A stretch of DNA of 64,000 bases, taken from assembly GCA_045532945.1 (NCBI GenBank), contig JAZSGZ010000013.1, positions 41,900 through 105,899 on the forward strand, given 5' to 3'. The notes under the pieces were generated by a model. That model worked only from the letters and a program-made list of their open reading frames with translations. It was not told where the DNA came from and ran no database searches. Positions 14,894 to 39,329 of the stretch are shown here, in pieces; within the stretch, counting starts at the first letter, position 1, and every line of letters begins with the position of its first letter. This stretch comes from Acutalibacteraceae bacterium. Lineage in GTDB: Bacteria; Bacillota; Clostridia; Oscillospirales; Acutalibacteraceae. The position numbers and the translations under genes were made by a program.

Positions 14894-16987
14894 TTACGAA
14901 ACCTTTATTGTAGCTAATTCTTTATCACACTCATCAATAACAAATTGTGGTATGGTATCATATTCTCTTGGATTTAGTTGCCACACATAATCGTTTCCAA
15001 CATGGTATGTTTCGTTTACAAATTTTTTAACAACAGCATTTGGACTGTTTTCGTTATGTATAACTCTATATATTTGTAACTTTTCATAATTACTTGAGGC
15101 AGCATTATAAAGTTCAAGCAAGAAATTAATGTCCATAACTTTTTTGTGCTCAATAAAATAATCAAACCCAGGAATTGATTCACGAACTAAAATTTGTGCA
15201 GATGAAAACTCTTCATCAGTCATCGGTCTATCTTCTAAACTATTCCTTACATGTGGATAAGGATCTCTGTGCAAAAGACATGATGTCATTTGCCATATTA
15301 AACCTTTTTCATCTTCCACTTCGTATAAACGTCGTAAATAAATTGTTTTTATTATGTTATCAATCTCTAAAGTAAGATTATTTTTTGCAATTTTTTGTAT
15401 AGTGCAAATATTATTACTTTTTATTTCCGTTTCTATTAGTTTTCCGTCCTTAGTTGAGAGGAAACTCGCTTTAGGTGCAGGATTAAATTCACGTTTTTTT
15501 ACTTTCATAACATCAATAACAGTATTAAATTCGTGCGTTAACAATAAGACACTGCGGTTTTTTAGAGAGTTTTGAGATAAAAACAATAAATTTATCAATG
15601 CGAATTTTTTATTTCCATCAAAAGATGATATTGGATCATCAAGTATAATTAAGTCAGTATTATCCTTCTGCACAGTAAAAGCAAATAATGCTAAGGCTAA
15701 TGCATTCTTTTCACCGTAACTTAGATGCCTATTTATCGTTGTTAGTTCCAAATCAACATTTGCAGGTTTTAATATCATCCTATAATCACGATTGGTCTCT
15801 TCGATTATGTCTACGATATAATTATAGCCAGCACCGCGCAAAAACTCATTTATTGTGGCTTTATTGGCTTCAATAGTTCGTGCAATTAAAATGTTTTGCT
15901 GATTCACTTCACCTTGTAGTTTGCTTGCTAATCCTATTACTGTTTTTAAAGAACTATTTATAATATTTATTTTTTCCTCTGTTTTATTAGAAAACAAAAA
16001 TGGGAAATATGACAAATCAATCAAGAAACCATTCAATTCATCTGCTATTTTATCAACACTTTTAAGAGAATTATAATTTATGTTCCTAAGTCGCAAAAGA
16101 TTATTTAATAAATCCTTTACTTGGTTTTTAACTCTAACAAGGTATTCTTTTTGTTGCGAACTAATTGAAGAAACATTGTCCCTTATTTCTTGTATTTTAG
16201 TTGCTGTTGATTCAGAAAAGTAGGGGATAAGTTTTTCTAATAAAACCAAGACAGAATTAAGGTGTTCGATATCTTTTGATTTGTACTCCTCTGTTATTTT
16301 TAAAATTGTGTCCTTAGTGGTTGAAATGCTTCCAGAACAATATGGGCATTGATCTTCCATTTCCAAAAAATCTTTACCTGTTAATTGCCATTTTAACCAA
16401 GAAACATTTTTTCCACCTTCGCTATGTCTTAAATATGTACTGAATTTTTCCAGACCAGAAGGAATATGTTTGAGTTTGTTTCCCTTACTAATGGCTTTTG
16501 ATATAACACTATTGCTTGCTAATGTATCTGATTTTCCAAAACCAGATACGAACTGAGAGAATGCATCAATAAGTTCATTTAATTCTGGATGAGATGTGAA
16601 AGCAGTTGATACTTCTTCAAGTAGTCTTTCTATTTCTTTCATATGCTCATCATATTTAGGCGTTTTTACAAATATTGAAAAACTATCTTCTATAAGTTCA
16701 TCTTCTTTAAAAATATGACGATTTATATATTCCTCATTAAAAATAGAAACAGAACGAATTCCTTCTAAGCCACTTACATTGGGTAATGAAGCAGATGAAT
16801 TGCCAATGTTTGAATAAGGAATTAATTCTTCTTTTAAATTGTCATCATTATTAACAAAGGCTTCAATAACCTTAGAAATAGTTGATTTACCGGTTCCATT
16901 AACACCATATTTGATGTTTAAACAACCTTCGGCAATTTCAACTTGTCCGTTAGTTATGTTATTACAGTTTGTGAAATTAAGTATCAT
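14894..16987 (-). CDS. AAA_13-type ABC/SMC-like ATPase with CxxC zinc-hook-like insert (RloC/PrrC-like candidate defence ATPase)
   Basis: Walker A GVNGTGKST. CPYC at about residue 214 in a predicted coiled-coil insert. ABC signature LSYGEKNAL. Walker B LIILDDPISSFD. C-terminal domain contains RRLYE...LLHRDPYPH. Confidence 0.65.
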   Translation of the reverse strand: MILNFTNCNNITNGQVEIAEGCLNIKYGVNGTGKSTISKVIEAFVNNDDNLKEELIPYSNIGNSSASLPNVSGLEGIRSVSIFNEEYINRHIFKEDELIEDSFSIFVKTPKYDEHMKEIERLLEEVSTAFTSHPELNELIDAFSQFVSGFGKSDTLASNSVISKAISKGNKLKHIPSGLEKFSTYLRHSEGGKNVSWLKWQLTGKDFLEMEDQCPYCSGSISTTKDTILKITEEYKSKDIEHLNSVLVLLEKLIPYFSESTATKIQEIRDNVSSISSQQKEYLVRVKNQVKDLLNNLLRLRNINYNSLKSVDKIADELNGFLIDLSYFPFLFSNKTEEKINIINSSLKTVIGLASKLQGEVNQQNILIARTIEANKATINEFLRGAGYNYIVDIIEETNRDYRMILKPANVDLELTTINRHLSYGEKNALALALFAFTVQKDNTDLIILDDPISSFDGNKKFALINLLFLSQNSLKNRSVLLLTHEFNTVIDVMKVKKREFNPAPKASFLSTKDGKLIETEIKSNNICTIQKIAKNNLTLEIDNIIKTIYLRRLYEVEDEKGLIWQMTSCLLHRDPYPHVRNSLEDRPMTDEEFSSAQILVRESIPGFDYFIEHKKVMDINFLLELYNAASSNYEKLQIYRVIHNENSPNAVVKKFVNETYHVGNDYVWQLNPREYDTIPQFVIDECDKELATIKVS

Positions 16988-17030: not shown

Positions 17031-17059
17031 TTTAAAGGATAACTATTTGTTATCTCTTA
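17031..17059 (+). repeat. 29-bp dyad-symmetric site, copy 1 (candidate tyrosine-recombinase core site)
   Basis: tttaaaggataactatttgttatctctta is the exact reverse complement of 20682-20710. Internal arms gataac / gttatc flank the asymmetric spacer tattt. Confidence 0.85.
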
Positions 17060-17074
17060 AAAGGGTTGAAAAAC

Positions 17075-18319
17075 ATGTATAATCAAAAAATAGAAAACGC
17101 AGTAAATTTAATTAACGATTTTTATACTTACCATGAGTGCACAATACCATTATGTGCTGCTGAAAATATAATTTCACCTTTTTGCAAAATACCTTTAAAT
17201 GGTAATTTCCAAGAAAGATATATTATGGGGGGGACAACACACTATGACATTAATAACAATTTTATAGGTAGTCAATATTTGTTACCAATCTACAAATCAA
17301 TTGAAGATTGTTGCAAGGAGTTGTTTAATGCAAATTATGTTGATGCAAAAACGCTATCAGGAATGAACTGTGTTACCACCTTATTAATGAGTTTAACTCA
17401 AATTGGTGATAAAATAGTATTGCTTGAAGAAGATGCAGGTGGACATCCATCTGTAATTGAAATATGCAAGAGGCTTGGTTTAAATATAATATATACACCT
17501 TTTGATTATGATAATTACACAATAGATTACCAACAATTAAATTCTCTTATCGCAAAAGAAAAGCCCAATTATTTGTGTTTAGCACCATCTGATATCATTA
17601 TCCCAGTTTCAATTGAAAAAATTGAATTAAGTCAAACGATATTGCTGTATGATGTCAGTCAACTTTTAGGTTTAATTGCCGGAAATATTATAGAAAACCC
17701 TTTAGAAATTAACCCAAACATAATAATATTTGGTGGTACACATAAGACCCTGCCAGGTCCTACTCACGGACTTATAATGACCAATTCTGTTAATTTAGCA
17801 GAGGTTCTTGAAGAAAGAGTTAGTCCTGAATTCATAAGGAACACTCAAATGAATCAAGTTTTAAGCCTTCTTTTCACATTAATTGAGTTTAATGATTTTG
17901 GAAAATCATATATGGAGAAAATAGTAACAGTGGCCAATGACCTCGGTAAATTGCTAGAAAAACGCTCTTTCAATGTAGCAAAAACTGAGGAGAAATATAG
18001 TAATACACACCAAGTATTTATTAAATGTTCAAAAGAGGAAATGAACACGATATACGATAACGCAATTTTAACAGGAGTTACCCTAAATAAGAAGGAACGC
18101 AAGTTATTCGGTGGTTACGGAATAAGACTTGGAGTACAAGAAATAGCCCGATATGGTTGGAATCATAACGATTTAGAAATCATTGCCGATATTCTATCTT
18201 TATTAAGAACGGAAAACTTTGATACAAAAGCATTTAAACAATTTTCAAGAAAATTATCTCCCAAATGCATAGATTTCACATATAAGGATTCTCTTGGAGA
18301 AATTTTACATCATAAATAA
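17075..18319 (+). CDS. divergent serine hydroxymethyltransferase-like PLP-dependent enzyme
   Basis: PLCAAENIISPF compares with SHMT ELIASENF. GGTHKTLPGPTHGLI compares with SHMT TTHKTLRGPRGG (PLP lysine). About 415 aa, as for GlyA, but otherwise highly diverged. Confidence 0.6.
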   Translation: MYNQKIENAVNLINDFYTYHECTIPLCAAENIISPFCKIPLNGNFQERYIMGGTTHYDINNNFIGSQYLLPIYKSIEDCCKELFNANYVDAKTLSGMNCVTTLLMSLTQIGDKIVLLEEDAGGHPSVIEICKRLGLNIIYTPFDYDNYTIDYQQLNSLIAKEKPNYLCLAPSDIIIPVSIEKIELSQTILLYDVSQLLGLIAGNIIENPLEINPNIIIFGGTHKTLPGPTHGLIMTNSVNLAEVLEERVSPEFIRNTQMNQVLSLLFTLIEFNDFGKSYMEKIVTVANDLGKLLEKRSFNVAKTEEKYSNTHQVFIKCSKEEMNTIYDNAILTGVTLNKKERKLFGGYGIRLGVQEIARYGWNHNDLEIIADILSLLRTENFDTKAFKQFSRKLSPKCIDFTYKDSLGEILHHK

Positions 18320-20649
18320 CTGTAGGCACAAAGGGTTAAATGTTTCTGCTTTAAAAGCAATTGCATTTTTTTCAAGACCATTATGCTCAAGATATGACAA
18401 CATTTCTTCGTCAATAGGCTCTCTTTTTAATATTGTTAAAATTAAATTGGCTAGCATTTCATTAATGGTTAAATTGTGTTCTCTGGAAATTTTAATGGTT
18501 TTAATCAAAAGATTAATTTGCTCATTTTTGCAATTGTTATATATAAATTTAATAGCATCATACTCAGTTAAGATAATTCCTATATAAGACATAGTTTCTA
18601 AGTTTTTATCGCCATTTTTGTGAGAAAAATCTATTGCCTTACAATAATTATCTATCGCTTTATTGTGTTCTTGCATAAAACGATAGTATTCTCCTAACTC
18701 AAAATACATTGTATATATTAATCTTTTTTTTAGTTTTTCGTATCCAAGGAAAGCTTGTTCTAGTTGACCTTTTGCTTGTGTAGGAATATTTCCAGGGGTA
18801 CTATTGGAAATAAGGTATCTTGTATGATTCCTATAATATAATAATTTCGCGGCATTATCATTGTTCTTATTAATTAGAGCAAGAGTTTCTGTAAACATCT
18901 CTTCCAAGTTTTGATATCTTGTTTCTTTAGCAAAAAGATGTGGGTTAGACATATAAATAATGGTTAATTCCAAGTTAATTGTAAGTATTAATTTGGAAGA
19001 GTTTAAACTATTCGCTATTTCTAAAGCTCTGAAATAATAAATAATCGCATCTGAATAACACCCTATGTGTCTAAATGAGTGTGCGATTTTCATATCTATT
19101 GTCATTTCGAAATTTCTATCACAATTACTGGTTCCATTGATTTTGGATAGTATTATTTGAAACCAATATATTGCAGTATCATACATGCTTTGTAAATGAA
19201 ATAAATCAGCTAATTGAATGGCTAAATCTAATTGACCCATTTCAACAGCATAAGATATTAATATCCCTTCATTATCAAAAAATCTTTTTGCCGTAGGATA
19301 ATCACCTACACTTAATAATGCTAATATAAACCCATGTGCTATTTTATAATACATGTCATCTTTTATATTTTGATTACCATCTCGAAAGTAATGATTCCCA
19401 AAAGATATCAAAAACATATATTGTTCTTTCTGTATTGACTCATCTATACATTTGATGATTAAATTTTTATATGATGACAGATCCCTTCTCTTTAATAAAA
19501 CAGAATAGATGGAACAACTTTGTATATTTTTTCCCTTTTCATAAAAAAACAACAACCTTTTAATATCTTCATAATAAGAGAATTGAACAATGTTGTAAGT
19601 TATGTAGTCTCTTATAATATCATGCATTTTGATTGTTTTTTTGAATTCATTATATTTTATAAGAGAATACGAATTTATTTTTTTTAAAACTCTCATATTT
19701 GTATTAATTCTATTATCAAAGTTTGTTAGGAATGATACTTCAATTTCGGTATTAACCAAACTTAACAGCGCAATGTAAACTATAACCAAAGCTAAATTTG
19801 AATCTTCTCTTTTTAGATCATAAAATATTTTATCAATGTATTCATTATAAAATTCTCTATTGCAATGATCATCGTTTGAAATCATTAAATCAACCATTAT
19901 TGGTAAACCATTAGAACCTTCACATATTTCCTTTAGTACTTCAGGAGAAAGTTTCTTTTGACATTTTTTCGCGTACTCGTCTATGTCATCTACTTTAAAC
20001 TCTATTATTTCTATCTTCGGTTTATCATTACCTGATTTTGGAAGTGATAGTTTTTCTATAGAACCTAAAACAAAAACAAATTTTAAAGAGTAAGGTTGTA
20101 CATTTTTAATTAAATCTTCCACTGCGTTTTCGGTACATTTATTTGTAATGTTATCTAAAACAATTATAATCTTTTTATAAAAAAAAGAAGTTCTTAACAT
20201 TGTCTTTATTGCATTGTCAAGATTTTTGCTTTTTCCATTAGACAATATTTCGACAAGTTTATTAGTTAAAATATCATCACCTTCAATATTATTTACTTCA
20301 TAATAAATAACTTTTGTTCTTAATCTATCTATATAACTATAAGTCTTCTTTAGTTTTTTTAGTTCGGAACTTTTAATGGATATTTTATTGTTGATAAAAT
20401 CAGATACATACTTTAGAAAATAAGTTTTTCCTACACCTTTTTCCCATACACATTTATTATCTTTTTATCAGATTTGATCATTTGTATAAGAGTGATAATT
20501 TGATAATTCCTATCCGTGAATTTCTCATGTTCTACAAGTTGTCTTTTAGTTGTTTTAACAATGAATTTGCTAATAATCCCCAAAATAGTCAATACAGAAA
20601 CAACGCATGCTAATATTTTATAAACTGTATCTATGGAATTGATTTGCAT
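18305..20649 (-). pseudogene. membrane-anchored STAND-like P-loop NTPase with C-terminal TPR array; frameshifted within the Walker A motif
   Basis: The 87-aa ORF (TM helix, ends ...INVYGKKV*) and the 646-aa ORF frame (open from 20464, reads GVGKTYFL...) join into GKKGVGKT if one base is added at the A5 run (T5 on + strand, 20438-20442). Walker B IIIVLDN. Multiple TPR-like repeats. Alternative starts at 20667 and 20694. Confidence 0.65.
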
Positions 20650-20681
20650 GTTACAACCCTCTTTCATAAAATCCAATACTG

Positions 20682-20710
20682 TAAGAGATAACAAATAGTT
20701 ATCCTTTAAA
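20682..20710 (-). repeat. 29-bp dyad-symmetric site, copy 2 (inverted)
   Basis: taagagataacaaatagttatcctttaaa, a perfect inverted copy of 17031-17059. Confidence 0.85.
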
Positions 20711-20780
20711 TTTTATTTATGTACACTCGACAAGACAAGGTTTTTCCGTCATAATTACATAAAAAACGGAGGTTTTGTCA

Positions 20781-21683
20781 GTGAGTTTACAATCTGAAAT
20801 TAACAACTATATTGCAGTTTGCGAAAATCTCAAAGGTTTAAGTAAACTGACAATAAAGGCATATAAGATTGATTTAAAACAATATCAAGATTATGCCAAT
20901 GATTTAGACTGGCTTTCTAAAGAGTGTATGACCACATACATCGACCATTTATATAAAGCTTACAGTCCTAAAAGTGCTAAAAGAAAAATAGCATGTCTAA
21001 AAGCATTTTATAGATATCTGGAAATGGAAGACATCATAGAATACAATCCATTTCACAAAATAAAAATCAAATATAAAGAACCAATTGTATTGCCAAAGAC
21101 CATTTCATTAAACGATATAAAGAATATATTGATTTTTTCGTATAATCAAAAAGAAAACAGTAAAACAGACATTCAAAAAGAAACAAGATTACGGGATGTA
21201 TTAATTTTAGAAATGTTATTTTCAACGGGAATGCGTGTATCTGAAATTTCACACTTATCTGTTGATGATATCAATTTGATTGACGGTACAATTCGTATAT
21301 TTGGTAAAGGGTCAAAGGAAAGAATAATGTGTCTTACAAATGAATCTGTTCTCGAACTCTTAAGTGAATATATAAACACTCAAAATAAAACATCAAGCTA
21401 TATGTTTACAAACCGTTTAGGAAACAGGTTGTCCGAACAGTCAATAAGAAACATGGTAAACCACTATGCCTGCGCAGCCGGTGTAACGCAACACATAACG
21501 CCTCATATGTTCCGTCACACCTTTGCCACGGCTCTGCATGATGAAGATGTAGATATTAGGTATATTCAACAACTGCTTGGCCACAGTTCAATTTCAACAA
21601 CCCAAATCTACACTCACATCAGTACAAACAAAATACATAAGCTTCTTGAAGAAAAACACCCAAGAAACAAAATATTAATTTGA
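20781..21683 (+). CDS. XerC/XerD-like tyrosine recombinase
   Basis: C-terminal catalytic region HMFRHTFATAL...LLGHSSISTTQIYTH (R-H-R-Y family). GTG 20781 lies 8 nt after GGAGG; the track start is TTG 20775. Confidence 0.85.
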   Translation: MSLQSEINNYIAVCENLKGLSKLTIKAYKIDLKQYQDYANDLDWLSKECMTTYIDHLYKAYSPKSAKRKIACLKAFYRYLEMEDIIEYNPFHKIKIKYKEPIVLPKTISLNDIKNILIFSYNQKENSKTDIQKETRLRDVLILEMLFSTGMRVSEISHLSVDDINLIDGTIRIFGKGSKERIMCLTNESVLELLSEYINTQNKTSSYMFTNRLGNRLSEQSIRNMVNHYACAAGVTQHITPHMFRHTFATALHDEDVDIRYIQQLLGHSSISTTQIYTHISTNKIHKLLEEKHPRNKILI

Positions 21684-21690
21684 TTTATGA

Positions 21691-21730
21691 ACCTTCTACA
21701 CAATTGTTGTGTGGAAGGTGTTTTTTCTTT
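21691..21730 (+). terminator. rho-independent terminator
   Basis: 12-bp stem accttctacaca / tgtgtggaaggt (one G-U pair) followed by a T-run. Confidence 0.75.
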
Positions 21731-21756
21731 TAAAGGATAATATTTAATTATCTATT
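21728..21756 (+). repeat. degenerate third copy of the dyad site (direct relative to copy 1)
   Basis: tttaaaggataatatttaattatctatta matches copy 1 at about 23/29 positions. The 16-mer ttcttttaaaggataa (21725-21740) is identical to 17027-17042. Confidence 0.6.
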
Positions 21757-21769
21757 AATGAGGTGCAAA

Positions 21770-24451
21770 ATGAAGGTATTAAAAATCAATTCTATCGGAG
21801 GGCTATATCACGAAATGTTTGAACCTGATCCTGAGTTCTTTTGCTCAAAAATCAATGTGTCGAACTGCTTTATTGATGCAAACTCATTTTTTTGGTCAAA
21901 ACATTTTTCTGTATCAAAAATTAATGAACTAATAGATGTGTTATCTTTTAATAAGTCTAACATTTATAGCTTTTGTCCTCAATATAAGGCTGTTTTATCC
22001 AATCGTGAGCTCTTTGTACAAAAAGTAGTTGAAGCACCTAAAAAACTGTGTTATGAAGCTAACACTCCCCAAGAGTTTTTTTCGTGTTTAGAAACTATTT
22101 CGATATTGTGTAAACTATATTCAGATTTTGAATATTTTCCTTTTAACCTAAACATACAAAATGGATTTAATTTAAATGAAAACAATTCATATGAAATTTA
22201 TAACAATTGCCTTAATCCTAAAAAAAATCCATACTATAATTTTGTTGTTGAAGAAATAATCCCTATAATTAAAGAAAATAATCCAGATATATTATTCCTT
22301 TATGGTCAAATGAGTTATTATTTTGCAACTTTATCTTTATTAATTAAGCAATTTAATCCACAAATTCATATTTGTTTATCAAGGCACTCATCGGAATACT
22401 ATTCGATGAACAAAATCATTCCACTTTTAAAGCAAAACAAATATCTTTTCAAAATAATTGACAGTATTATTCTTGACTCATTCGAAGAAACAGAAGGAAA
22501 ATTAATTTCCTCATTGAAGAACAATGAACGCATTGATTGTGTTCCTAATATTTTATTTATCAATGACAGCAAAGAAATAATTGAGACTAACTTCTCTGAA
22601 CCTTGTTTCACAAATGATTATTCAATTTATAAAAGGATGCATAACGAAAAAAACACCAACAAGAAAGTTTATGATATTCATTTTGATCCATATATAAAAT
22701 GTCATTGGGATAAGTGTTCATTTTGTGGTATTAACAAAAAATACCGTAATAGAGATTTGTGTTATTCTGAACAAACTTTCAATAGAAAAGCTACTAGTCT
22801 TAATTTGTTGTCTCAAGAATGCGACTATTTGTGGTTTATAGATGAAGCGTTATCACCAGACAAGTTGAGAAATATAGCTGTTAGTTTTATTAATGCAAAA
22901 ACTGGTTTTAAATGGCAAGCTAGATGTCGAGCGGATTATGGTTTGCTTGAGAATGGTTTGCTTGAGAATGGTCTGCCAGAATTACTAGCTAAATCTGGAT
23001 TAAGAGAACTTCGCATAGGATTAGAATCCGGCTCTTATAAGGTACTTAAACTCATGAATAAATTTGATGAAAATTTTAATTTGAGTTTAATAGAATCTAT
23101 TGTTTCGACATACGAAAAAAATGGAATATCTATACACTGTCCTATGATAATAGGATTCCCACAAGAAGAAGATATCGACCGTCAGTATACTTATGAGTTT
23201 TTGTTAAAGCTTTCAAAGAGCCATCCTTCATTTACATTCAATTTAAATATTCTAAATTTAGATGTAAGTAGTGAACTATATAAAAATTGGGCAAATTATC
23301 AACTTGATAAATTGGAGTATCCTTGTGAGCCACAATATTTTTTGGGAAATTCGATTGCGTGGATTGATAGCCTTAAACATAACAAATTATCAATAGATGT
23401 AAATAATTTTATGCGAGAGGTACTTTTTCCATGGATACCTGCTGATTCCTTAATATCGCCTACTATATTTTATCGGTTATGCGAAACCAGTAGAAACACC
23501 CTTCGATGGAAATCTATAGGTACTTGGTATAAAAGCAAACAATTATTTTCTTCAGATATGAATTTAACATTATCGAATAAAGTTTCGATTAGTCAAAGCG
23601 AAGATAGAGTGTTTTTTTATCAATGGAACTCACATCACTATTTACATGGAAACACCTATCTTTATAATTTGCTTGTTGAATTCAAAATAAGCTCTAAGGT
23701 TTCAAAAGTAATTAATAAATTAAATGGTCTTGATCCTAACGTGTATGTAAAAGAAGAGTTAATTTCATTAATAAACAAATTGTTTGAGTTCGGTTTTTTA
23801 GAAGGAGAGTATATTTTTAGTGATTTAAAAAATCTTGGTGATATAGAAAAGGCATATGACTCTATATATCAAGAGGGAAACCTTATATATAAAATTGAAC
23901 CAGATAGATTATTAATAGATTGGCAAAATATTCTCGTTCCAGGTCAAGCTTTAGAATTAGGTGTAGGCTTGGGAAAAAACATAGATTTTCTTTTAGATAA
24001 AGGTTTTTCTGTAACTGGTGTGGATATTTCATCCGTAGCTATAGAAAAGCTAAATAAAAAGTACCATAGCTCCAATTGTTCTTTTTTTGTAAACAATATA
24101 AATACTTTTGAAATTCCTCGTGAAAAATATTCATTAATTATATGTTCTTTAGTTTTATCATATCTAAACGATACTGAACTCATTCTTTTATCTAATAAGA
24201 TTAAAAATGGTTTGTGTAAAGGAGGATTCTTTTATCTAACTGATTTGTCAGAAAGAGATCCTCTTTCTATAAAGCCAAACAATCAAACAACCGATCATAG
24301 GAATTTTTTTAGTTGTTCAAAAATTCAAAGTTTATTTAAAGAATTGGATATCATTGAGTTGAGCGATGTTTATAGAAAAAATCCGCATAGGATTGGCTGT
24401 GAAAATGCTTTTGGACTTATTAACTATTTAGGTTATAAACCCAAGTCATAA
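21770..24451 (+). CDS. fusion protein: B12-binding-like N-domain, radical SAM core and class I SAM-dependent methyltransferase
   Basis: Cys triad KCHWDKCSFCG has Cx4Cx2C spacing, confirmed from codons at about 22699-22728. C-terminal motif I LELGVGLGKN and LIICSLVLSYL indicate a Rossmann methyltransferase. ATG 21770 follows GAGGTG. Confidence 0.6.
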   Translation: MKVLKINSIGGLYHEMFEPDPEFFCSKINVSNCFIDANSFFWSKHFSVSKINELIDVLSFNKSNIYSFCPQYKAVLSNRELFVQKVVEAPKKLCYEANTPQEFFSCLETISILCKLYSDFEYFPFNLNIQNGFNLNENNSYEIYNNCLNPKKNPYYNFVVEEIIPIIKENNPDILFLYGQMSYYFATLSLLIKQFNPQIHICLSRHSSEYYSMNKIIPLLKQNKYLFKIIDSIILDSFEETEGKLISSLKNNERIDCVPNILFINDSKEIIETNFSEPCFTNDYSIYKRMHNEKNTNKKVYDIHFDPYIKCHWDKCSFCGINKKYRNRDLCYSEQTFNRKATSLNLLSQECDYLWFIDEALSPDKLRNIAVSFINAKTGFKWQARCRADYGLLENGLLENGLPELLAKSGLRELRIGLESGSYKVLKLMNKFDENFNLSLIESIVSTYEKNGISIHCPMIIGFPQEEDIDRQYTYEFLLKLSKSHPSFTFNLNILNLDVSSELYKNWANYQLDKLEYPCEPQYFLGNSIAWIDSLKHNKLSIDVNNFMREVLFPWIPADSLISPTIFYRLCETSRNTLRWKSIGTWYKSKQLFSSDMNLTLSNKVSISQSEDRVFFYQWNSHHYLHGNTYLYNLLVEFKISSKVSKVINKLNGLDPNVYVKEELISLINKLFEFGFLEGEYIFSDLKNLGDIEKAYDSIYQEGNLIYKIEPDRLLIDWQNILVPGQALELGVGLGKNIDFLLDKGFSVTGVDISSVAIEKLNKKYHSSNCSFFVNNINTFEIPREKYSLIICSLVLSYLNDTELILLSNKIKNGLCKGGFFYLTDLSERDPLSIKPNNQTTDHRNFFSCSKIQSLFKELDIIELSDVYRKNPHRIGCENAFGLINYLGYKPKS

Positions 24452-24464
24452 GGAGGTGAATTAA

Positions 24465-24626
24465 ATGAAAAAAGTTGGAATAGAAGTGGAGTTTGATGGA
24501 AAAGCTATAAACTTGACTTCTAAAGACTCCGCCTCTGTTATTGTTGCAACTCCTGCAACTGGCGGTGGCGGTGGCGGAAATAGCGGTGGCGGAAATAACG
24601 GCACCAACAACGGTGGTGGGAAATAA
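24465..24626 (+). CDS. 53-aa Gly/Asn-rich peptide, candidate RiPP precursor (not in ORF track)
   Basis: AGGAGG at 24451-24456, ATG at 24465. Sequence MKKVGIEVEFDGKAINLTSKDSASVIVATPATGGGGGGNSGGGNNGTNNGGGK, stop TAA 24624-24626. Lies 13 nt after the rSAM/MT stop. Confidence 0.6.
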   Translation: MKKVGIEVEFDGKAINLTSKDSASVIVATPATGGGGGGNSGGGNNGTNNGGGK

Positions 24627-24646
24627 CACTACCTACCCAAAACTCA

Positions 24647-24677
24647 GGGTGAAAAGGATTATTAAACCTTTTCACCC
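24647..24677. terminator. bidirectional terminator hairpin between convergent genes
   Basis: 11-bp stem gggtgaaaagg / ccttttcaccc. Overlaps the 3' end of the pentapeptide-repeat gene. Confidence 0.65.
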
Positions 24678-26284
24678 GATGAATCGTCATCATTTTCTTC
24701 AACTATTTCAATATAATATTCGCGTAATGGCAATGATTCCTCGTCAGGACTATTTAATTCAATTTTAATGGATTTAATGTTTTCTTTGATTATTGATGGA
24801 ACTAAGAGTTTCTTTTTGGGTTGTTCCTCAAGTTGCTTTTTGCGTTCTTCTAATTTTAAAATTGACATTTCAGTTTCTATCTGTTTACTTTTAATTTTTT
24901 CTTGTAATAAAGCGTTTTCAAGATGTGCTTTTTTTACATTAGCATCTTGTAAAACTTTTTCCGTTCTCGCTGATTGATATTCTTTGTAGACCGTTAAAAG
25001 ATGTTTAACAAATTTTATTGCAGTAGTTGAATAAGCACAAAATTGAATGAAATCTATTATGTATTCATATAGATTAAAAACGGAATCGCTTAAAAAGAAT
25101 TCAAACAACGGAGGTGAATTATGTCTAACACTAAAGTAATAGTTGCTTTGAGGCAAAACTTGTTTGACTGTTGTTTCAAATAATTCTATAAAACATATCC
25201 AACTATTATAATCCTCAGAATTAAAATTTGTATGACAAGTTATTGTCATTTGAGGCATTGAAAAAGGATTATCAATAAGTAATTTTTTGATTTCTAAAAC
25301 TTCATGTAGGTATATCTGATATTCATGATTATTCATTTCCGCTATGTGACTGTTAAATATGATTGCATTATATAATTTTTTTAAGTTTTCTTTTGTAAAG
25401 AAGTAATTTATAGAAGATAATTTGCAAAGATAACGTATGGTTCTAAAGTCTCTTTCTTTAAGAGCTTTATCTAATCCCATAAGAATATAAACCAATGCTT
25501 TTTCTTGATGTCCAAGAAATATATTTATATTAGCAAGTGCAAAAAATTCTTCTTTTTTATATAAATATGGTTGTATAGGTATGAGCAAATCAAAAAATTC
25601 ATTAACTTGAATTTCTTTGCCGGCTGCAGCATATTTTATTGTTACGTTCATGTTATCCTTTAACTCTAGTAACAATCCAAAGGATTTTAAAATTCCCCAA
25701 AAAGGCAAAACAACTCCATTAAATATAGGACTTACAAATGTTGAATATTCCAAATTCCCATGAATTAAATCGCATTGTTCAAAAACACAATTTTTAAACT
25801 GTGCATTTTCAAACGAGCAATGAGCAAATTCTGAACAAACAAATTTGCTTCCTACAAAATAGCCTTCATCAAAAACACTTGCATTAGCAAGAAAATGATT
25901 AAATTCAACGCCTGAAAAGTTTGATTTGTTACATCCACAATTATCAAAAAAACACATGTTTAAAAATTTAGAGTTTGAAAAATCACTACTTGTCATTCCT
26001 GAATCCTTAAAACGAGTTTCATTAAATGTACAGTTAATGATCTTTGAAGAAATACCATTTATTCCATCAAAGTGAACTTTGTTAAATACACTATTATAAA
26101 ATTGAGGTTGCTTAACACACTGACCTTGATAATCTGCTCCAATCACGGAGTCCGCAATATATGCAGATACATAATCATTACCTGAAAAATTACTAGGGTC
26201 TAGACTCTTCATTATATTTTCAGCGTTAATGTATTCAATTTGAGAAAAACCCTCATTGCTATTGAAGAAATCTAAATTACTCAT
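24662..26284 (-). CDS. pentapeptide-repeat protein with helical/coiled-coil C-terminal region and acidic tail
   Basis: Residues about 60-190 are tandem pentapeptides (FNKVHFDGINGISSKIINCTFNETRFKDSGMTSSDFSNSKFLN...FENAQFKNCVFEQCDL). The C-terminus has a KQ/E-rich coiled coil and EENDDDSSGEKV. Confidence 0.75.
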   Translation of the reverse strand: MSNLDFFNSNEGFSQIEYINAENIMKSLDPSNFSGNDYVSAYIADSVIGADYQGQCVKQPQFYNSVFNKVHFDGINGISSKIINCTFNETRFKDSGMTSSDFSNSKFLNMCFFDNCGCNKSNFSGVEFNHFLANASVFDEGYFVGSKFVCSEFAHCSFENAQFKNCVFEQCDLIHGNLEYSTFVSPIFNGVVLPFWGILKSFGLLLELKDNMNVTIKYAAAGKEIQVNEFFDLLIPIQPYLYKKEEFFALANINIFLGHQEKALVYILMGLDKALKERDFRTIRYLCKLSSINYFFTKENLKKLYNAIIFNSHIAEMNNHEYQIYLHEVLEIKKLLIDNPFSMPQMTITCHTNFNSEDYNSWICFIELFETTVKQVLPQSNYYFSVRHNSPPLFEFFLSDSVFNLYEYIIDFIQFCAYSTTAIKFVKHLLTVYKEYQSARTEKVLQDANVKKAHLENALLQEKIKSKQIETEMSILKLEERKKQLEEQPKKKLLVPSIIKENIKSIKIELNSPDEESLPLREYYIEIVEENDDDSSGEKV

Positions 26285-26331
26285 AAAACCTCCATGATAA
26301 TTAAATATTATCCTTTATTTGTTTTTAATTT

Positions 26332-27108
26332 TTACTTATATAGTTTTTCATCGATTAATAATTCACTTTTAAGATCATCATAATTACCGTACAATGATTC
26401 TATTGTGTTGTTATAATACTTTGCGTACCAAATATATTTACTATAAATATTATCCCTGTCTTTTGTTTCTATTAGATTTTTAATAATTGAAGATTTAATT
26501 TCGTTAAGATAATATGGATATTCTTCTGGAACATCTAATTCTTCATGCTGAGATAAAAAATCTAAATATATTTGTTTATCTTCTTCATCTTGTTTTAATA
26601 AACTTCTTAGATATTCTGCTTCTTCTTCACATGTATTAGCATATCCGGGTGATTTTAATCCATTGGCAATAGCTATAGTATCCACAATAATTCTAGGCGT
26701 GATGGCATGATTTTGCTCCATTTCATATGCAGTAATCATAGCAGGACCAAAACAAACATTTCTCTTGTGATACAATAAACCAAAAGTTACGCCACCACGA
26801 ACAAAAATCCCATTAATATTAAGTTGCAAACAAATAAATACTAAATCCATTAACAAGAAAAATAGTCCACCTCTGGTGTCACCAGGATATGATATAACTA
26901 TGCTATCAGAAAATACAGAAACTTCCTTTTTGGTTGTATCATATTGAGCAAGAAAACCATGATAATTTTCATTCCTAACTTCTGATATATAATTCAAAGC
27001 ATTGCTTATAGTTTCAAAATCGCTATTATCTTGTGTTGTTTTTTGCACTAAATCTTTAAACCCTAAAATATCTAAAAATACAATAAATCTATTTTCGTAA
27101 GACTTCAT
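26332..27108 (-). CDS. class III nucleotidyl-cyclase-like protein (stand-alone)
   Basis: Four motifs match the cyclase homology domain: FIVFLDILGFKDLV (FADIVGFT), VFSDSIVISY (IGDAxM), VRGGVTFGLLY (RIGIHTG) and FGPAMITAYEME (GxxVNxAARLE). ATG 27108 follows GGAG; the track N-terminal extension runs into the promoter repeat. Confidence 0.45.
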   Translation of the reverse strand: MKSYENRFIVFLDILGFKDLVQKTTQDNSDFETISNALNYISEVRNENYHGFLAQYDTTKKEVSVFSDSIVISYPGDTRGGLFFLLMDLVFICLQLNINGIFVRGGVTFGLLYHKRNVCFGPAMITAYEMEQNHAITPRIIVDTIAIANGLKSPGYANTCEEEAEYLRSLLKQDEEDKQIYLDFLSQHEELDVPEEYPYYLNEIKSSIIKNLIETKDRDNIYSKYIWYAKYYNNTIESLYGNYDDLKSELLIDEKLYK

Positions 27109-27159
27109 TTCAAATATCTCCTTAAAATTAATACTTACATCAGTGAAGATGTGCAAAAT

Positions 27160-27262
27160 TGTTCTACTTATATATGACAAATTTCGCGAAATACTTCAAA
27201 AAATTTTTGTGATTTTTATCTTTTCTACTTTTTGCACAAAATGATGTTGCGAAAATTGTCGA
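27160..27262 (-). promoter_or_regulatory. conserved promoter-like element, copy A
   Basis: In gene orientation: TTTTGTGCAAAAAGTAGAAA box, A/T tract, TTGAAGTATTT, then GTCATATATAA. Homologous to 28582-28690 and 44965-45044. Confidence 0.6.
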
Positions 27263-27279: not shown

Positions 27280-28533
27280 TTAAACTAAAACTGGTTCGGT
27301 GTCTCTTGGTGTGAAATCAACAATTTGTTCAGCAGACTCAAGTTGTGTTATGTTATCCAAATAACTAACGGCGTTAAACATGTTAACAATCCCGTACTTA
27401 ACCGGAATATCAGCAGTTTCACAAGAATTATATAGAATCTGCTTTATTTGTTCATTGTTTAAATTGGGGTATTGAGTTTTTATCATTGCACAAACAGAGG
27501 TTACAAACGGTGCAGCACAGGAGGTTCCTGTAAACTCAACATAATCTCCATCGGCATACGTGGATGGTAGTTTTAGGTTTTCTCCCGGTGCGGCTACTTT
27601 TACCCAGTCACCGAAAGCTGCCTTTTTGTATAATTTCTCTGATTGATTAATTGCAGTAACAGATATAACACCATCACAAGCAGCAGGGTACTGCGGTTGT
27701 GTGCTTTTTACGTTACCTACAGATGCAATGTGTAATGGTTTTGATATCCCGCTATTGAATTTAGCAAACATACCATAACTGCTATTTATAAAATCTACGC
27801 CATCAAGTTCCGCTTGCATTTCAGCCAAATGCAAAATGGATAGCGTTGTTTCATTATCAGTGAAAATTTTATATGATATAAACTTCACATTGGGGAGAGT
27901 GTTTTCCATCAGAACGCTACAGACCCTTGCTCCGTGTCCTGTACTGGACGTAAAAGGACTTTCAGGTTCTTCTGTAAAACAATGTGCTTCTAAAAGTCGA
28001 TGAGCAAAGTCCTCATTTCCCGTTTCAACACCGTCATCGATTATACCTACTACAACATCAGGTAAATCATCAAGGCTTTTGTTTTTCAATATGTATTCAA
28101 ACGCTTCCTTACTTTTGGTGCGTTCATATCCCCAAGAGTGCTGAATTTCAGCTCTGTGAAGTGAAAGTTTAGATGTGTCAGATGAGTGTGTTTTTTCCAG
28201 TTCAATTACAATATCAGGTACAACAAGTTTTATATTAGGATTTTTGGTGTATTTGGTGAAAGCTGAGAAGGCATCAAGGGGAGTAGCATACTGCAAAATG
28301 TGCATATCACCATAGCCTGAAATATGGTCTATTGCTCCATATTTATCAAAAGCTACATCAGCGTAAACAATTAATCGTTTTGATGTGAAATGCTTTTGGA
28401 TAGAATCTTTTTTGTCATTGTTATTGTTGAAACTATAGTAGTTTATAAATTGTAAAACTTCTTTTGAAAAACCTTTTAATTCAGAAGAATGGGGAGTAGT
28501 ATTCTGAAAATTGTTGTTTGCATTTTGAATCAT
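27280..28533 (-). CDS. subtilisin-like S8 serine peptidase without a signal peptide
   Basis: Catalytic triad contexts VVGIIDDGV (Asp), STGHGARVCS (His) and GTSCAAPFVTS (Ser). I9-like prodomain. No N-terminal hydrophobic signal. Confidence 0.8.
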   Translation of the reverse strand: MIQNANNNFQNTTPHSSELKGFSKEVLQFINYYSFNNNNDKKDSIQKHFTSKRLIVYADVAFDKYGAIDHISGYGDMHILQYATPLDAFSAFTKYTKNPNIKLVVPDIVIELEKTHSSDTSKLSLHRAEIQHSWGYERTKSKEAFEYILKNKSLDDLPDVVVGIIDDGVETGNEDFAHRLLEAHCFTEEPESPFTSSTGHGARVCSVLMENTLPNVKFISYKIFTDNETTLSILHLAEMQAELDGVDFINSSYGMFAKFNSGISKPLHIASVGNVKSTQPQYPAACDGVISVTAINQSEKLYKKAAFGDWVKVAAPGENLKLPSTYADGDYVEFTGTSCAAPFVTSVCAMIKTQYPNLNNEQIKQILYNSCETADIPVKYGIVNMFNAVSYLDNITQLESAEQIVDFTPRDTEPVLV

Positions 28534-29321: not shown

Positions 29322-32300
29322 TTAACCTGCTAAAACCAAGTTCACAACCTGAGCATAATCTTCAACAGTTATTTCTTGGTCCAAGTTTGTATCTGCTGCA
29401 AGGAAATATTCATCCTCTAATGTTGCTAAATTATTAGCAACCAAAGCTACGACAGATGCATCTATAACATCTACTGCGCTATCGCCATCAACGTCACCTT
29501 CAACAATTAGTGTGTAATGTTCTCGATTAGACATATTGTAAATAACAAATTCAGAACCAGTACCATACCAAGAATATTCTTTATATACTAAAGACGGCAA
29601 AGAAGAATAGCTTGTGTTTTCTTGAATTCCAATGATATTAAAGAAATCCTTACAACCTGTTGTTTTGGTGTAAATTAAATTATTATCAAAATCAATGTGT
29701 GTATTGGGAAGGGAAACCATATAATAAAGCCTATTCTGACACATAGAACTTTTAATTATAACTTGACTAACAATATTACCATCAATATCTTTATCCGTAC
29801 TTGTCATAATACAATAATAATAAGGGTATGATTTGTAATCATCAGGATTAAATGTTTTATCTGTTGCATTTGTTATAGGTTTGTCATCATAGTTACCTTG
29901 AATTTTATCCTTTGAACCGTACCATTGATAAGTTCTATTAAATCCTCTTGCATCAAATTCAAGTGGCTCGTATGAATACTTATCCCAAATGGGCTCAATA
30001 TCCTCAACAACGGCAGTTTCTTGCGATATGTTTATAAACTCAATATCATTTTTCTCTGCCCATTGTTCTGCATAGCTATTTACACCTGATGTACCATAGA
30101 CTACGTATTCGATATACTCATTTTTGTAGTCTTTAGCAGGGACACAGTGTTTAAGGGTTGAGGGAAAGATTAAATCTACACTAACAGGTTGATAATACGA
30201 ACTATACCAACATTTACCACCACTTAAAGTATCTGGTAAATCATAAATGTATTCAACGTTAGATAGCAAAACTGTTTTGATGGGACTTGCCTCAAAAAAA
30301 GCAGACCCAATACTTGTGATTTTCGGTAAATCAATTACACTGAGCTTGGAACATTTATTGAACATATTGCGAGTGGATTCGGGATTATCTACTGTGAGAA
30401 TTTCATCAACCAAATCATATTTATCTAAAAAATCCGCTTTGGGAGCATACATAACCCTTAGATATGTGTTGAAAGCAAATGCATCGTTACCTATGCTTTC
30501 ACATTCAGGTAAATATATTTCTCGCACCTTTGCAACATTGTAAAAGGCCTCATTACCAACCTTTTTAACTTTAGGAAATACTGCTCCCAAAAAACTCGAT
30601 TGATAAAATCCAGCCTGCATTATTTCCTCGCAGTTTGGAAATTGTACCTCATATAGATTTGGTAAAAACGAAACGCCATAATAACCAATGGTTTTAATCC
30701 CGTTACCAATTATAAAATCCAAGGTCTCATTTTCATTAAATGCTCCATACTGCTCATCAAGTGTCATAGGGCGTTCATACCTGTCTAACGTATCTCCTAG
30801 AACCTCAACTGTATCAGGAAGAATAACACCATATAACTCTGCTTTATAAAATCCGCTATCCCATGAAATTTCTTTTACTGTTATTCCGTTTATTACTTCA
30901 GGGATTTTAAGATATTTGACATTGCCTGTATATCCCGTTAAAACCCCTTTTTCGTTTACCGTGAACATATCATCAGTACCTAAAACCAATGAACAAAACT
31001 TACCAAAAACATAATTACTTTTATTGCCGTCTTTATAAGCAACAGCACGTATTTTTGCTGAATCATCATATAGTGTAATTGGTTCGGTATATAAAAATCC
31101 ATTTGTGGGCGATGGATATGAATAGTCGGTTGTATAATATATATTTGAACCTGATTCGGCTGAAAGCTCTAATGTGATTTCACCAACATATTTACCCGGT
31201 TCGATACTGAATTGAGGTGCGGATAATGAATCTAAACCAAATAATTTTAAAGGATTTACAATACCGCTACCGAAAAAGTTGGTAACGTATTCTTCATCAG
31301 TTCCCGAACCGCAATTTATCACGGCTCGGATTCGTTCTTCAAAAGAACATTTTTGATTAACGCTCAAATACATTGCATATACACTTACCATAAATGGTGA
31401 AGAAAAAGATGTTCCAGCACTTGAGGTAATTTTATTATTCAAGGAGATTAAACTCATATCAGTACCAGGGGCCATTATGTCTATGTGTTTTCCGAAGTTA
31501 GTAAAATTTGCGGGCGCATTATATTTAGTGCTTGCACCAACACTAAAAATATATTCAGAGGATGTTAAAGGCGAGCCTGCAGTGAACTGAACATCGCTAC
31601 CCTCATTTCCAGCACTTGTAAAAACAGCGCAATACGAGGACCATGCATATTCAAGCGTTTCATCAAGTAGTTTAAAGCTAGGGGAGGAACCTAAACTAAT
31701 ATTTATCACATTAGCTCCATTACTAATTGCCTGAAGAATAGCTGCACACAAGAGAGTGTAACTTTCTATTGCACCATACCTGTTTACACAACGATAGTTT
31801 GCTATTTTAACATTTGGAGTTGTACAGTTAGCAATGAGGCTTGTTACCTTTGTTCCATGTCCTTGATAATCTTGTTCAGAATTCTCATCACCATCACCGG
31901 CATTATTAAAACCTGTCGGTATTAATCTGTCTTGTAAATATTTGCAATTTAAATCCACCCCAGTGTCGACAACAGCTACAATGACTTTTGGTAAGTTTTG
32001 GTTTTTATATTTTTCCAAAACCAAATCCATCCCCGTTGCTTCCAAATACCAATCATTTTTATAATTCTCGTAGGTTAATTCGGTACTGTTGGTAGTTTCT
32101 TCTGTTGTTAAAGCGACAGCATTGTAGGAAAAGTCATACTCAACAGAAATGATATCCGGATTATTTTTATATTGCTCATAGGCGTAGTTTATATCTTCTT
32201 CACTTTTAAACTGTAAAATATAGAAATCAAAAAAACCACTTACTACATCAACTGCATTATATGTATCAATAGGCTTATCAGACTGAACGATAAGACGAGG

Positions 32301-32531
32301 ACAATAATTGATTTCGATTTCTTCGTATGTGTTTTCTGTTGTTTGTTCTTCCTCAATAAATTCGGGAGTAACAAACTCAGATTCACTATATTCGTTTATC
32401 ATTTCATTTACATCTTTGCAGAATTCTTCTATGCTTTCTGAAACAATAACCTCTTCCATTGCTGAAACAGGAATACATATCATTGATGCAAGTAATGAAA
32501 CACTTAAAATAAAACTTATTGTTTTCTTCAT
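29322..32531 (-). CDS. secreted S8 peptidase with BspA-type leucine-rich repeats and a C-terminal dockerin
   Basis: Signal peptide present. Triad contexts AVVDTGVD, HGTKVTS and GTSFSSPFM. LRR_5-like repeats (...IGNDAFAFNTYL...). Dockerin Ca-loops DVDGDSAVDVIDA and DTNLDQEITVEDY. Confidence 0.8.
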   Translation of the reverse strand: MKKTISFILSVSLLASMICIPVSAMEEVIVSESIEEFCKDVNEMINEYSESEFVTPEFIEEEQTTENTYEEIEINYCPRLIVQSDKPIDTYNAVDVVSGFFDFYILQFKSEEDINYAYEQYKNNPDIISVEYDFSYNAVALTTEETTNSTELTYENYKNDWYLEATGMDLVLEKYKNQNLPKVIVAVVDTGVDLNCKYLQDRLIPTGFNNAGDGDENSEQDYQGHGTKVTSLIANCTTPNVKIANYRCVNRYGAIESYTLLCAAILQAISNGANVINISLGSSPSFKLLDETLEYAWSSYCAVFTSAGNEGSDVQFTAGSPLTSSEYIFSVGASTKYNAPANFTNFGKHIDIMAPGTDMSLISLNNKITSSAGTSFSSPFMVSVYAMYLSVNQKCSFEERIRAVINCGSGTDEEYVTNFFGSGIVNPLKLFGLDSLSAPQFSIEPGKYVGEITLELSAESGSNIYYTTDYSYPSPTNGFLYTEPITLYDDSAKIRAVAYKDGNKSNYVFGKFCSLVLGTDDMFTVNEKGVLTGYTGNVKYLKIPEVINGITVKEISWDSGFYKAELYGVILPDTVEVLGDTLDRYERPMTLDEQYGAFNENETLDFIIGNGIKTIGYYGVSFLPNLYEVQFPNCEEIMQAGFYQSSFLGAVFPKVKKVGNEAFYNVAKVREIYLPECESIGNDAFAFNTYLRVMYAPKADFLDKYDLVDEILTVDNPESTRNMFNKCSKLSVIDLPKITSIGSAFFEASPIKTVLLSNVEYIYDLPDTLSGGKCWYSSYYQPVSVDLIFPSTLKHCVPAKDYKNEYIEYVVYGTSGVNSYAEQWAEKNDIEFINISQETAVVEDIEPIWDKYSYEPLEFDARGFNRTYQWYGSKDKIQGNYDDKPITNATDKTFNPDDYKSYPYYYCIMTSTDKDIDGNIVSQVIIKSSMCQNRLYYMVSLPNTHIDFDNNLIYTKTTGCKDFFNIIGIQENTSYSSLPSLVYKEYSWYGTGSEFVIYNMSNREHYTLIVEGDVDGDSAVDVIDASVVALVANNLATLEDEYFLAADTNLDQEITVEDYAQVVNLVLAG

Positions 32532-32597
32532 TTGTTACTCCCTCTTTCGGTTTAAATTACTCAGTTGCGTATAATTGAATAACTATATAATAGGTCA

Positions 32598-38034: not shown

Positions 38035-38037
38035 TAT

Positions 38038-39327: not shown

Positions 39328-39329
39328 TC

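Follow-up and report, generated by a model that had tools for sequence, protein, structure and literature searches.

An invertible DNA cassette, probably phase-variable, joins a radical-SAM-like enzyme and poly-glycine-type peptide to a pentapeptide-repeat protein in gut Clostridia and sulfate reducers

In the G segment of phage Mu and the C segment of phage P1 (inverted by Gin and Cin) and in the Hin system of Salmonella, a segment of several kilobases is bounded by short inverted repeats, lies beside its recombinase gene and is read from a fixed promoter outside it. Among peptides made by the ribosome and altered after translation (RiPPs), microcin B17 derives from a poly-Gly-rich precursor, McbA, and has as its immunity factor McbG, a pentapeptide-repeat protein that protects gyrase, while maturation of polytheonamide combines C-methylation by a B12-type radical S-adenosylmethionine (SAM) enzyme with N-methylation of Asn. 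The radical-SAM enzyme MgmA methylates the C-alpha of a Gln in methyl-coenzyme M reductase (MCR), and the Hailong system makes an oligo-dA homopolymer. Here we describe a locus to be set beside all of these. It lies in a 64,000-nucleotide stretch of an Acutalibacteraceae genome (GCA_045532945.1, contig JAZSGZ010000013.1, forward-strand positions 41,900 to 105,899; hereafter the window, with positions numbered from its first letter), where a 4587-bp segment (21731-26317) contains the genes for a radical-SAM/methyltransferase enzyme, a 53-residue peptide and a pentapeptide-repeat protein (PRP). We regard inversion of this segment as practically certain, and we think it probable that the segment is a phase-variable cassette of two units, a RiPP-type enzyme-peptide pair and the PRP. 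In kind it is a variant that combines two known ones, a radical-SAM RiPP system and programmed inversion, and by membership tests the system falls outside the microcin B17, proteusin and Qnr families. The literature that we searched describes neither a poly-Gly radical-SAM peptide nor an invertible RiPP/PRP cassette.

The segment is bounded by two 22-nt inverted repeats that are 100% complementary to one another and contain the dif-like core GATAAY-N5-RTTATC, which occurs 4 times in the window where 0.02 matches would be expected. This core, often positioned after TAAAG, recurs from Desulfobacterium to Lachnospiraceae, and among the 90 related loci that we fetched from genomes and metagenomes (numbered L001 onward), repeats of this type flank the cassette in more than 25. 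Inversion itself was observed by comparison with L004, a locus near-identical to the window from an Acutalibacteraceae genome bin: 21731-26317 matches in one orientation (99.5%), whereas the recombinase flank (99.9%) and the opposite flank, which carries the gene f10 and an S8 peptidase gene (84%), match in the other, and the strand switches of the alignment fall exactly inside the repeats. The same exchange of flanks was found in two unrelated lineages (L035 versus L034 and L036; L063 versus L064), the opposite orientations being compared across different samples. Beside the segment lies the gene of an Xer-like tyrosine recombinase, REC, in which the RKHRH-Y residues can be read directly and which scores about 246 bits against the XerD and XerC models, under their cut-off. 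Clustering of the neighbouring genes brought out two that are conserved besides those of enzyme and peptide, namely the PRP gene and REC. A REC homologue adjoins the cassette in 19 loci; by our own count on the assemblies, 11 have it facing the enzyme end and 8 the PRP end. The original prediction, which had proposed a RiPP with pentapeptide-repeat self-immunity from the letters of the DNA, missed this invertible cassette and its dedicated tyrosine recombinase.

Many contigs stop exactly at a repeat or have the length of the cassette (about 4.57 kb or 3.8-4.1 kb). Such ends were rejected as proof of both orientations within a sample for Logan unitigs, because a repeat that reaches the word size of the assembler breaks the graph anyway, but those of the short-repeat loci L009 and L042 are suggestive of coexisting orientations. 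A different type of boundary is seen in L033, L034 (positions 1-220), L036, L055, L064 and L066, which have inverted repeats of 145-230 bp with two to four core-like sites; by eye, the repeat of L034 also holds an internal hairpin (GCTCAG...CTGAGC). These long repeats hint at several crossover points or at shared regulatory leaders. The cultured and fully sequenced Maridesulfovibrio hydrothermalis AM13 (L093; FO203522.1 ~1,800,391-1,805,351) has the complete module, its cassette spanning about 1,800,391-1,804,406, with REC, 22-nt repeats, enzyme, PRP and a 63-aa peptide that closes with G23, and it thereby offers a ready experimental system.

The window resembles the Mu G, P1 C and Hin systems in its two convergent units, its inverted repeats and its adjacent recombinase gene and, probably, in being read from promoters outside the segment. 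It differs in that its recombinase is a tyrosine enzyme rather than a serine invertase of the Gin/Cin/Hin type, that its units are functionally unrelated rather than alternative alleles, and that it is chromosomal in anaerobes. A second point of comparison is provided by the tyrosine-recombinase shufflons, or 'epigenetic invertons', of Type I restriction-modification hsdS genes (PMC7672463, PMC9881135). With these the window shares an Xer-like REC beside the repeats, the window having two cassettes and four sites, as well as probable phase variation and an occurrence in host-associated bacteria; however, hsdS invertons generate new alleles by recombination of homologous coding sequence, whereas the window would swap whole genes at their 5' untranslated regions. 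PRPs are depleted among the targets in a survey of programmed inversion (PMC9881135), which does not list a poly-Gly/PRP cassette. If read correctly, the locus would clearly exemplify an inversion by which sets of genes with different functions, and not alleles or a promoter, are exchanged, and it would link phase variation with the biosynthesis of peptide natural products.

The peptide gene had been proposed from a strong ribosome-binding site (RBS) closely following the enzyme gene and from the division of the encoded 53-aa open reading frame (ORF) into a leader-like half and a core, and both observations hold. The RBS is present as described and recurs in L001, L002 and L004-L006, and ORFs composed of a leader and a Gly run accompany enzyme homologues in about 45 loci (44 unique peptides), usually directly after the enzyme gene behind a good RBS and in a few clusters elsewhere. 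The hosts of this pair include Acutalibacteraceae, Lachnospiraceae, Blautia, Christensenellaceae, Streptococcaceae, Desulfobacterium and Maridesulfovibrio; the family thus reaches across gut Clostridia and sulfate reducers, with M. hydrothermalis AM13 and Lachnospiraceae bacterium COE1 as cultured members. In these ORFs, the N-terminal half of the peptide carries the motif phi-phi-x-F-D (IEVEFD, ILAVFD, IIFDG and similar) ahead of a distinct Gly-rich core. The distance between the two is 17-33 residues in the 25 peptides that match a strict form of the motif and 27 in the window. The core consists of 6-27 Gly followed by one or two other residues (median 16 residues, 92% Gly), and most of the 44 peptides end at a stop codon 0-2 residues beyond it. 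The streptococcal 'GGG' family was also considered and judged unrelated, GggB (streptosactin) being a sactipeptide enzyme.

No Pfam or NCBIfam model matches the 53-aa peptide, which might be taken to mean that the ORF is untranslated and that its GGN run is merely a DNA repeat. We consider this barely credible: the ORF has a strong RBS, its leader is conserved at the protein level across phyla, and 11 of the 21 leader codons that differ from the 75%-identical locus L006 do so synonymously. Codon usage in the Gly runs leads to the same conclusion, since the first two positions are always GG while the third varies (GGC 266, GGT 173, GGA 62, GGG 6), and the placement of the stop codon so soon after the core also speaks against a mere repeat. 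The conserved leader, the synonymous changes and the maintained Gly frame together indicate that the ORF is translated, under selection and of precursor type, and we hold with high confidence that it encodes a genuine precursor-type peptide.

Among these peptides the Gly/Asn/Ser/Thr core of the window, which is devoid of Cys, is a diverged member of a poly-Gly family, in which the defining trait is a nearly pure Gly run and the Gly/Asn character is specific to one lineage. Pure poly-Gly cores are also paired with methyltransferase-fused enzymes (L028-L030, L091), which indicates that the fused methyltransferase is not tied to Asn; the analogy to Asn N-methylation in polytheonamide drawn by the original prediction is thus not general. 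In the near-identical loci L033-L036 the Gly runs measure G6, G6, G7 and G11, always in frame, which reflects either a hypervariable GGN tract or its collapse by assemblies. The enzyme likely acts on the Gly run. In a homopolymeric Gly core only the backbone and the C-alpha positions can be modified, and whether the enzyme methylates C-alpha, forms cross-links or oxidizes the core, its chemistry would probably be new to ribosomal peptides. The peptide gene escapes routine annotation, and members of the enzyme family are labelled just 'radical SAM protein' in the source records. Tools for genome mining would miss the cluster as well as its ON/OFF state.

The enzyme had been described as a fusion of a B12-binding-like domain, a radical-SAM core with an atypical Cx4Cx2C motif (CHWDKCSFC) and a class I methyltransferase. 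The motif is indeed present, and its three cysteines (C311, C316 and C319 in the numbering of the 893-aa protein) and their spacing are unchanged across 73 homologues. The methyltransferase is equally clear, with Methyltransf_25 matching aa ~720-860 in Pfam (E 1.4e-11, 45 bits against a cut-off of 27), TehB scoring 36 bits, and TehB, phosphoethanolamine N-methyltransferase and BamL among the matches of this part in the PDB. For the remainder, the assignment relies on fold. The AlphaFold2 model (predicted local distance difference test, pLDDT, 91.3; predicted TM-score 0.87) retrieves MgmA (E 7e-12), OxsB, CysS, TsrM and the related AprD4 in Foldseek, the C-terminus again retrieving small methyltransferases, with further support from sequence comparison, and residues 598-673 are modelled as four beta-strands followed by three helices, which is the layout of a RiPP recognition element (RRE). 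Weak NCBIfam matches point in a similar direction (PhpK-type, rSAM_ocin_1, the RiPP C-methylase TIGR03975, ApyD and the MCR glutamine C-methylase). These models support a cobalamin-type radical-SAM fold joined to a class I methyltransferase, that is, a divergent relative of the class B enzymes.

Several results count against this assignment. Radical_SAM scores 18 bits against its Pfam cut-off of 29.5; TIGR04479, TIGR03975 and NF050148 reach 29-61 bits against cut-offs of 282-750; all B12-dependent radical-SAM models fall below cut-off and the Cys spacing is non-canonical; and Pfam found no PqqD or RRE domain in the C-terminal ~100 residues of the radical-SAM part in four homologues. Moreover, OxsB and AprD4 are not methylases, and we consider methylation by the enzyme less likely than not. 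In an exhaustive search of 1.84 billion cluster representatives the family proved small and distinct, with only 69 at E<=1e-30, beyond which there is a sharp fall to generic class B enzymes that align to the core alone. It occurs in two forms, one of ~880-900 aa and one of ~680 aa that lacks the methyltransferase and stops just past the RRE-like region.

With the class B enzymes MgmA, PoyB/C, CysS, TsrM and OxsB, the predicted fold has in common a Rossmann-like domain and a barrel, together with extra domains like those of OxsB; it is set apart by Cx4Cx2C in place of Cx3Cx2C, by an RRE-like domain of its own and by an optional fused class I methyltransferase. Polytheonamide and other proteusins likewise combine a ribosomal peptide with a B12-type radical-SAM enzyme and a class I methyltransferase. 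Unlike proteusins, however, the peptide of the window gives no NHLP-type leader match, the core of the family is a homopolymer, no PoyD-type epimerase was seen in the loci inspected, and the methyltransferase fusion also occurs with Asn-free cores.

The third gene encodes a PRP of 540 aa whose AlphaFold2 model (pLDDT 80.6) has a beta-helix structurally closest to QnrB1, AlbG and MfpA. Its homologues (490-560 aa) are confined to this gene context, and it is present in 22 of the 40 loci that have 2.3 kb or more of sequence downstream of the enzyme. The proposal that this protein is a partner of the pair was correct insofar as the association is recurrent. The hairpin that the two convergent genes were said to share as a terminator does exist and could possibly act bidirectionally, but it was not flagged by a terminator scan. 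Beyond the beta-helix the PRP has ~350 extra residues, for which profile and fold searches gave nothing, and this region includes a conserved hydrophobic helix (aa ~402-428, window ~25000-25080) with Kyte-Doolittle 19-residue means of 1.4-2.4 across the homologues, which may be a membrane anchor, as well as a conserved C-terminal beta-hairpin. A beta-strand motif near the C-terminus (IKSIKIELNSPD...LPLREY) bears a loose resemblance to the leader of the peptide (IEVEFDGKAINLTSKD).

These features bear on the reading put forward originally, in which the peptide would be a secreted gyrase poison similar to microcin B17, the PRP a co-expressed self-immunity protein of the McbG/Qnr type, and the S8 peptidase the enzyme that removes the leader. 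A Gly-rich precursor encoded near a PRP is indeed reminiscent of microcin B17; the structural neighbours of the beta-helix include the McbG-like AlbG, the PRP accompanies enzyme and peptide in more than half of the loci (22/40), and the orientation seen in L004 would co-transcribe the S8/f10 operon with enzyme and peptide. However, the PRP scores 24.7 bits against SmQnr (cut-off 460) and 16.9 bits against Qnr (cut-off 240), and it is 2.5 times the length of the gyrase protectors, with extra domains and the hydrophobic helix. In contrast to microcin B17, the module and the neighbours examined showed no McbBCD-type genes, and the loci inspected no azole-forming enzymes; the cassette encodes no McbEF-type exporter; and the cores of the family are nearly pure Gly with few or no Cys/Ser, combined with a PRP of 540 aa and with invertible alternatives. 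The S8 peptidase gene is present but was found only in the flanks of the window and L004, a single lineage, and outside the conserved unit, which argues against its proposed role in leader removal. The two units occupy opposite ends of an invertible segment whose promoters would lie outside it. Such an arrangement argues for alternative or swapped expression, which is awkward for a toxin and its co-expressed immunity protein. The gyrase-poison explanation is therefore improbable to us, and its microcin-like immunity logic is not supported; an immunity function of the PRP in any form also seems unlikely. The PRP may act as an antagonist or immunity protein, represent an alternative state, or be a membrane effector.

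The last of these roles would fit an anti-phage or abortive-infection module, in which the PRP would be a membrane effector comparable to HalA, the modified peptide a ligand or guard, and phase variation a means of limiting cost. Like HalA/HalB of Hailong, the cassette places a pentapeptide-repeat-like protein, with a possible membrane helix, beside genes that make a homopolymer, here poly-Gly. HalA is the best NCBIfam match of the PRP (E 9e-7) and its structure is in the Foldseek list, the hydrophobic helix is conserved (Kyte-Doolittle means up to 2.4), and neighbours are often defence-like, namely Kiwa (L002), an adenosine deaminase with a leucine-rich-repeat (LRR) protein (L018, L020, L026), genes for KAP NTPases with tetratricopeptide repeats (TPR) and, in the window, an AAA_13 ATPase. 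Programmed inversions typically hit defence loci (PMC9881135). On the other hand, the similarity to HalA is confined to the generic repeat region, with a TM-score <0.2; unlike Hailong, the cassette has no nucleotidyltransferase, and its genes are convergent and invertible rather than an operon. PADLOC returned no system-level match and only generic methyltransferase (mad2) and subtilase matches, no member was found on phages or plasmids, and other members of the family reside in biosynthetic-looking clusters (with SPASM radical-SAM enzyme, AMP-ligase and GT2). We thus consider a defence function quite improbable.

The alternative that we favour is a two-unit switch. In unit A, the class-B-like radical-SAM enzyme would bind the leader of the 53-aa peptide through its RRE-like domain and then modify the Gly-run core, for which C-alpha hydrogen abstraction with iterative C-methylation would be the most parsimonious chemistry; unit B would be the 540-aa PRP, convergent with unit A inside the segment. 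REC would flip the 4587-bp segment at the dif-like sites and so change which unit joins which flanking promoter. In the orientation of the window, the PRP would be the last gene of the S8/f10 operon and probably ON, while enzyme and peptide would face the terminator of REC and probably be OFF; L004 would represent the opposite state.

This model builds on the placement of the sites. The repeats end 5-17 nt before the enzyme start (17 nt to ATG 21770) and 11 nt before the PRP start, and in L031, L032 and L091 the repeat even covers the start codon of both end genes (in L091 also the RBS). Both end genes begin a few nucleotides inside the sites, too close for a promoter to fit in between, so that their transcription has to start outside the segment. 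In the window, the terminator scan detected no terminator between f10 and the right repeat, and in L004 the f10/S8 flank abuts the enzyme end instead of the PRP end. The terminator-like hairpin on the REC side is identical in L004 and has a comparable counterpart in L046. In other lineages the outside signals can be read directly: TTGCTA-17-TATAAT lies between the REC stop and the repeat in L034, L036, L055 and L064; in L030 TGGTATAAT precedes a core site, which is followed by an RBS and a gene for a protein similar to serine hydroxymethyltransferase (SHMT); and in L007, L022, L032 and L038 the repeat adjoins the REC stop or overlaps with it, an operon-like layout. From these positions of sites, RBSs and promoters, we lean towards the view that expression depends on orientation.

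A number of points weigh against this model. The strong terminator between REC and the cassette means that the ON/OFF assignment rests on read-through from f10. Lineages with repeats of 145-230 bp could hold promoters inside the cassette, and in M. hydrothermalis a second promoter could be located in the ~500 nt of intergenic sequence next to the enzyme; with promoters on both flanks, both units might be expressed either way and inversion would be a promoter swap rather than an ON/OFF switch. A consensus promoter scan of this AT-rich region was uninformative (42 sites against 43.8 expected from shuffles). No protease or exporter gene lies inside the cassette, and the PRP is missing from 18 of the 40 loci. 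We offer as a doubtful conjecture that the locus defines a new RiPP class, in which a poly-Gly 'blank' is rewritten by a cobalamin-type radical-SAM enzyme and DNA inversion makes the population bistable, with producers on one side and PRP-expressing antagonist or immunity cells on the other. If this were true, iterative C-alpha methylation, for example, would yield residues like D-Ala or aminoisobutyric acid and a helix of ~16 residues, which is of membrane-spanning length, and a clonal gut population would contain a division of labour.

Inversion might instead be a by-product of mobility, with the cassette behaving as an integron-like or transposon-like element. L038 (5951-9751) and L070 (5951-9745) share a 97.5%-identical cassette interior between unrelated flanks and different repeats; REC and cassette are 99.5-99.9% identical between the window and L004 bins while the other flank is 84% identical; in L005 enzyme and peptide stand in a different context; and two of the four core sites of the window (S2 and S4; Table 1) are directly oriented, so that excision could follow. 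The patterns of L038/L070 and of the window and L004 suggest cassette exchange or recent transfer. Nevertheless, the inversions observed in three lineages occurred in place between identical flanks, the sites lie exactly between promoter and RBS, and neither a circular junction nor a target duplication was found. We consider mobility as the sole explanation very unlikely, and note that switching and mobility are not mutually exclusive. Searches of phage records gave no match, those of viral contigs one weak partial match and those of plasmids domain-level matches only.

Table 1. Positions of the genes, sites and signals discussed, numbered from the first letter of the window.
Feature	Position	Strand	Remarks
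Core site S1 GATAACTATTTGTTATC	17038-17054		inverted partner of S2; left end of cassette 2
SHMT-like pyridoxal phosphate enzyme, divergent	17066-18319	+	SHMT E 3e-17, under NCBIfam cut-offs; first gene inside cassette 2, beside S1
KAP-like P-loop NTPase-TPR gene	18305-20694	-	other end gene of cassette 2
Core site S2 GATAACAAATAGTTATC	20687-20703		other end of cassette 2
REC, Xer-like tyrosine recombinase	20775-21683	+	presumed invertase; Phage_integrase E 2e-43
Terminator-like hairpin	21691-21719	+	13 pairs and T run, -18.2 kcal/mol; between REC and left repeat
Left inverted repeat TAAAGGATAATATTTAATTATC	21731-21752		core S3 21736-21752; inversion breakpoint
Radical-SAM/methyltransferase enzyme	ORF 21758-24451	+	likely start ATG 21770 behind GAGGTG, 893 aa
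Enzyme, predicted domain order			N-terminal helical, Rossmann-like, radical-SAM core, RRE-like (aa 598-673), class I methyltransferase (aa ~690-893)
Cx4Cx2C motif CHWDKCSFC	22700-22726	+	presumed [4Fe-4S] ligands
RBS of peptide gene AAGGAGGTG	24450-24458	+	overlaps enzyme stop TAA 24449-24451
53-aa precursor-type peptide MKKVGIEVEFDGKAINLTSKDSASVIVATPATGGGGGGNSGGGNNGTNNGGGK	24465-24626	+	ATG 13 nt past enzyme stop
Peptide leader	24465-24560	+	contains IEVEFD
Peptide core	24561-24623	+	Gly/Asn/Ser/Thr
Hairpin between convergent stop codons	24647-24661 / 24663-24677		15-nt arms; overlaps PRP stop
PRP	24662-26284	-	540 aa; convergent with peptide gene
PRP, predicted parts			beta-helix aa 40-195; helical domain 227-340; alpha/beta domain 345-400; hydrophobic helix ~402-428; coiled coil; C-terminal beta-hairpin
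Right inverted repeat	26296-26317		core S4 26296-26312; inversion breakpoint
f10	26332-27180	-	282 aa, no family match; stop 14 nt from right repeat
S8 peptidase	27280-28533	-	in flank operon, outside conserved unit

The four core sites indicate that the window holds more than the cassette described above. By our reading, S1 with its flanks is the reverse complement of S2 at 28 of 29 nt, and the region between them (17038-20703) appears to be a second invertible cassette with the same type of site on the far side of the same REC. The SHMT-like gene at one end has a homologue in the distant locus L030, where a core site once more precedes it (13364/13394). The NTPase-TPR gene at the other end is split within its P-loop at a T5/A5 run (20438-20442) that lacks one base, and one added base restores a 796-aa ORF with GKKGVGKT; the split could stem from an error in sequencing, mark a pseudogene or result from phase variation by slippage. 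Genes for KAP NTPase and TPR proteins precede the enzyme in L013, L016 and L039, and a TPR gene alone does so in L037. Left of this cassette, 14894-16987 encodes a 697-aa AAA_13 ATPase and then a 210-aa protein that matches no family; together with the NTPase-TPR gene, these give the neighbourhood the look of a variable or defence-type island. On the other side of the PRP, the flank operon continues (29322-40538) with a secreted S8 protease bearing BspA-type LRRs and a dockerin, a lipoprotein and a 1752-aa RHS-repeat protein, and upstream of it are an agr-like GHKL kinase with a LytTR regulator and a helix-turn-helix protein.

Elsewhere enzyme and peptide are also found together in clusters of biosynthetic appearance that lack the PRP. 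L050 and L060 encode an alpha/beta hydrolase, a SPASM radical-SAM enzyme, an AMP-ligase and a GT2 protein, and L019, L024 and L025 a phosphotriesterase-like protein with a second radical-SAM enzyme (SPASM-type in L019). In L002 (1854-3409) a 71%-identical enzyme is encoded directly downstream of the Kiwa genes KwaA/KwaB, and in L018, L020 and L026 enzyme and peptide follow an ~860-aa protein with an adenosine-deaminase domain and an LRR protein. Two further loci carry what we read as genes of insertion sequence (IS) type: in L005 (8935-10377) an IS-like gene takes the place of the PRP, and in L010 (3830-10900) an IS-type transposase interrupts the module, with the peptide and PRP genes present twice, inverted around the enzyme.

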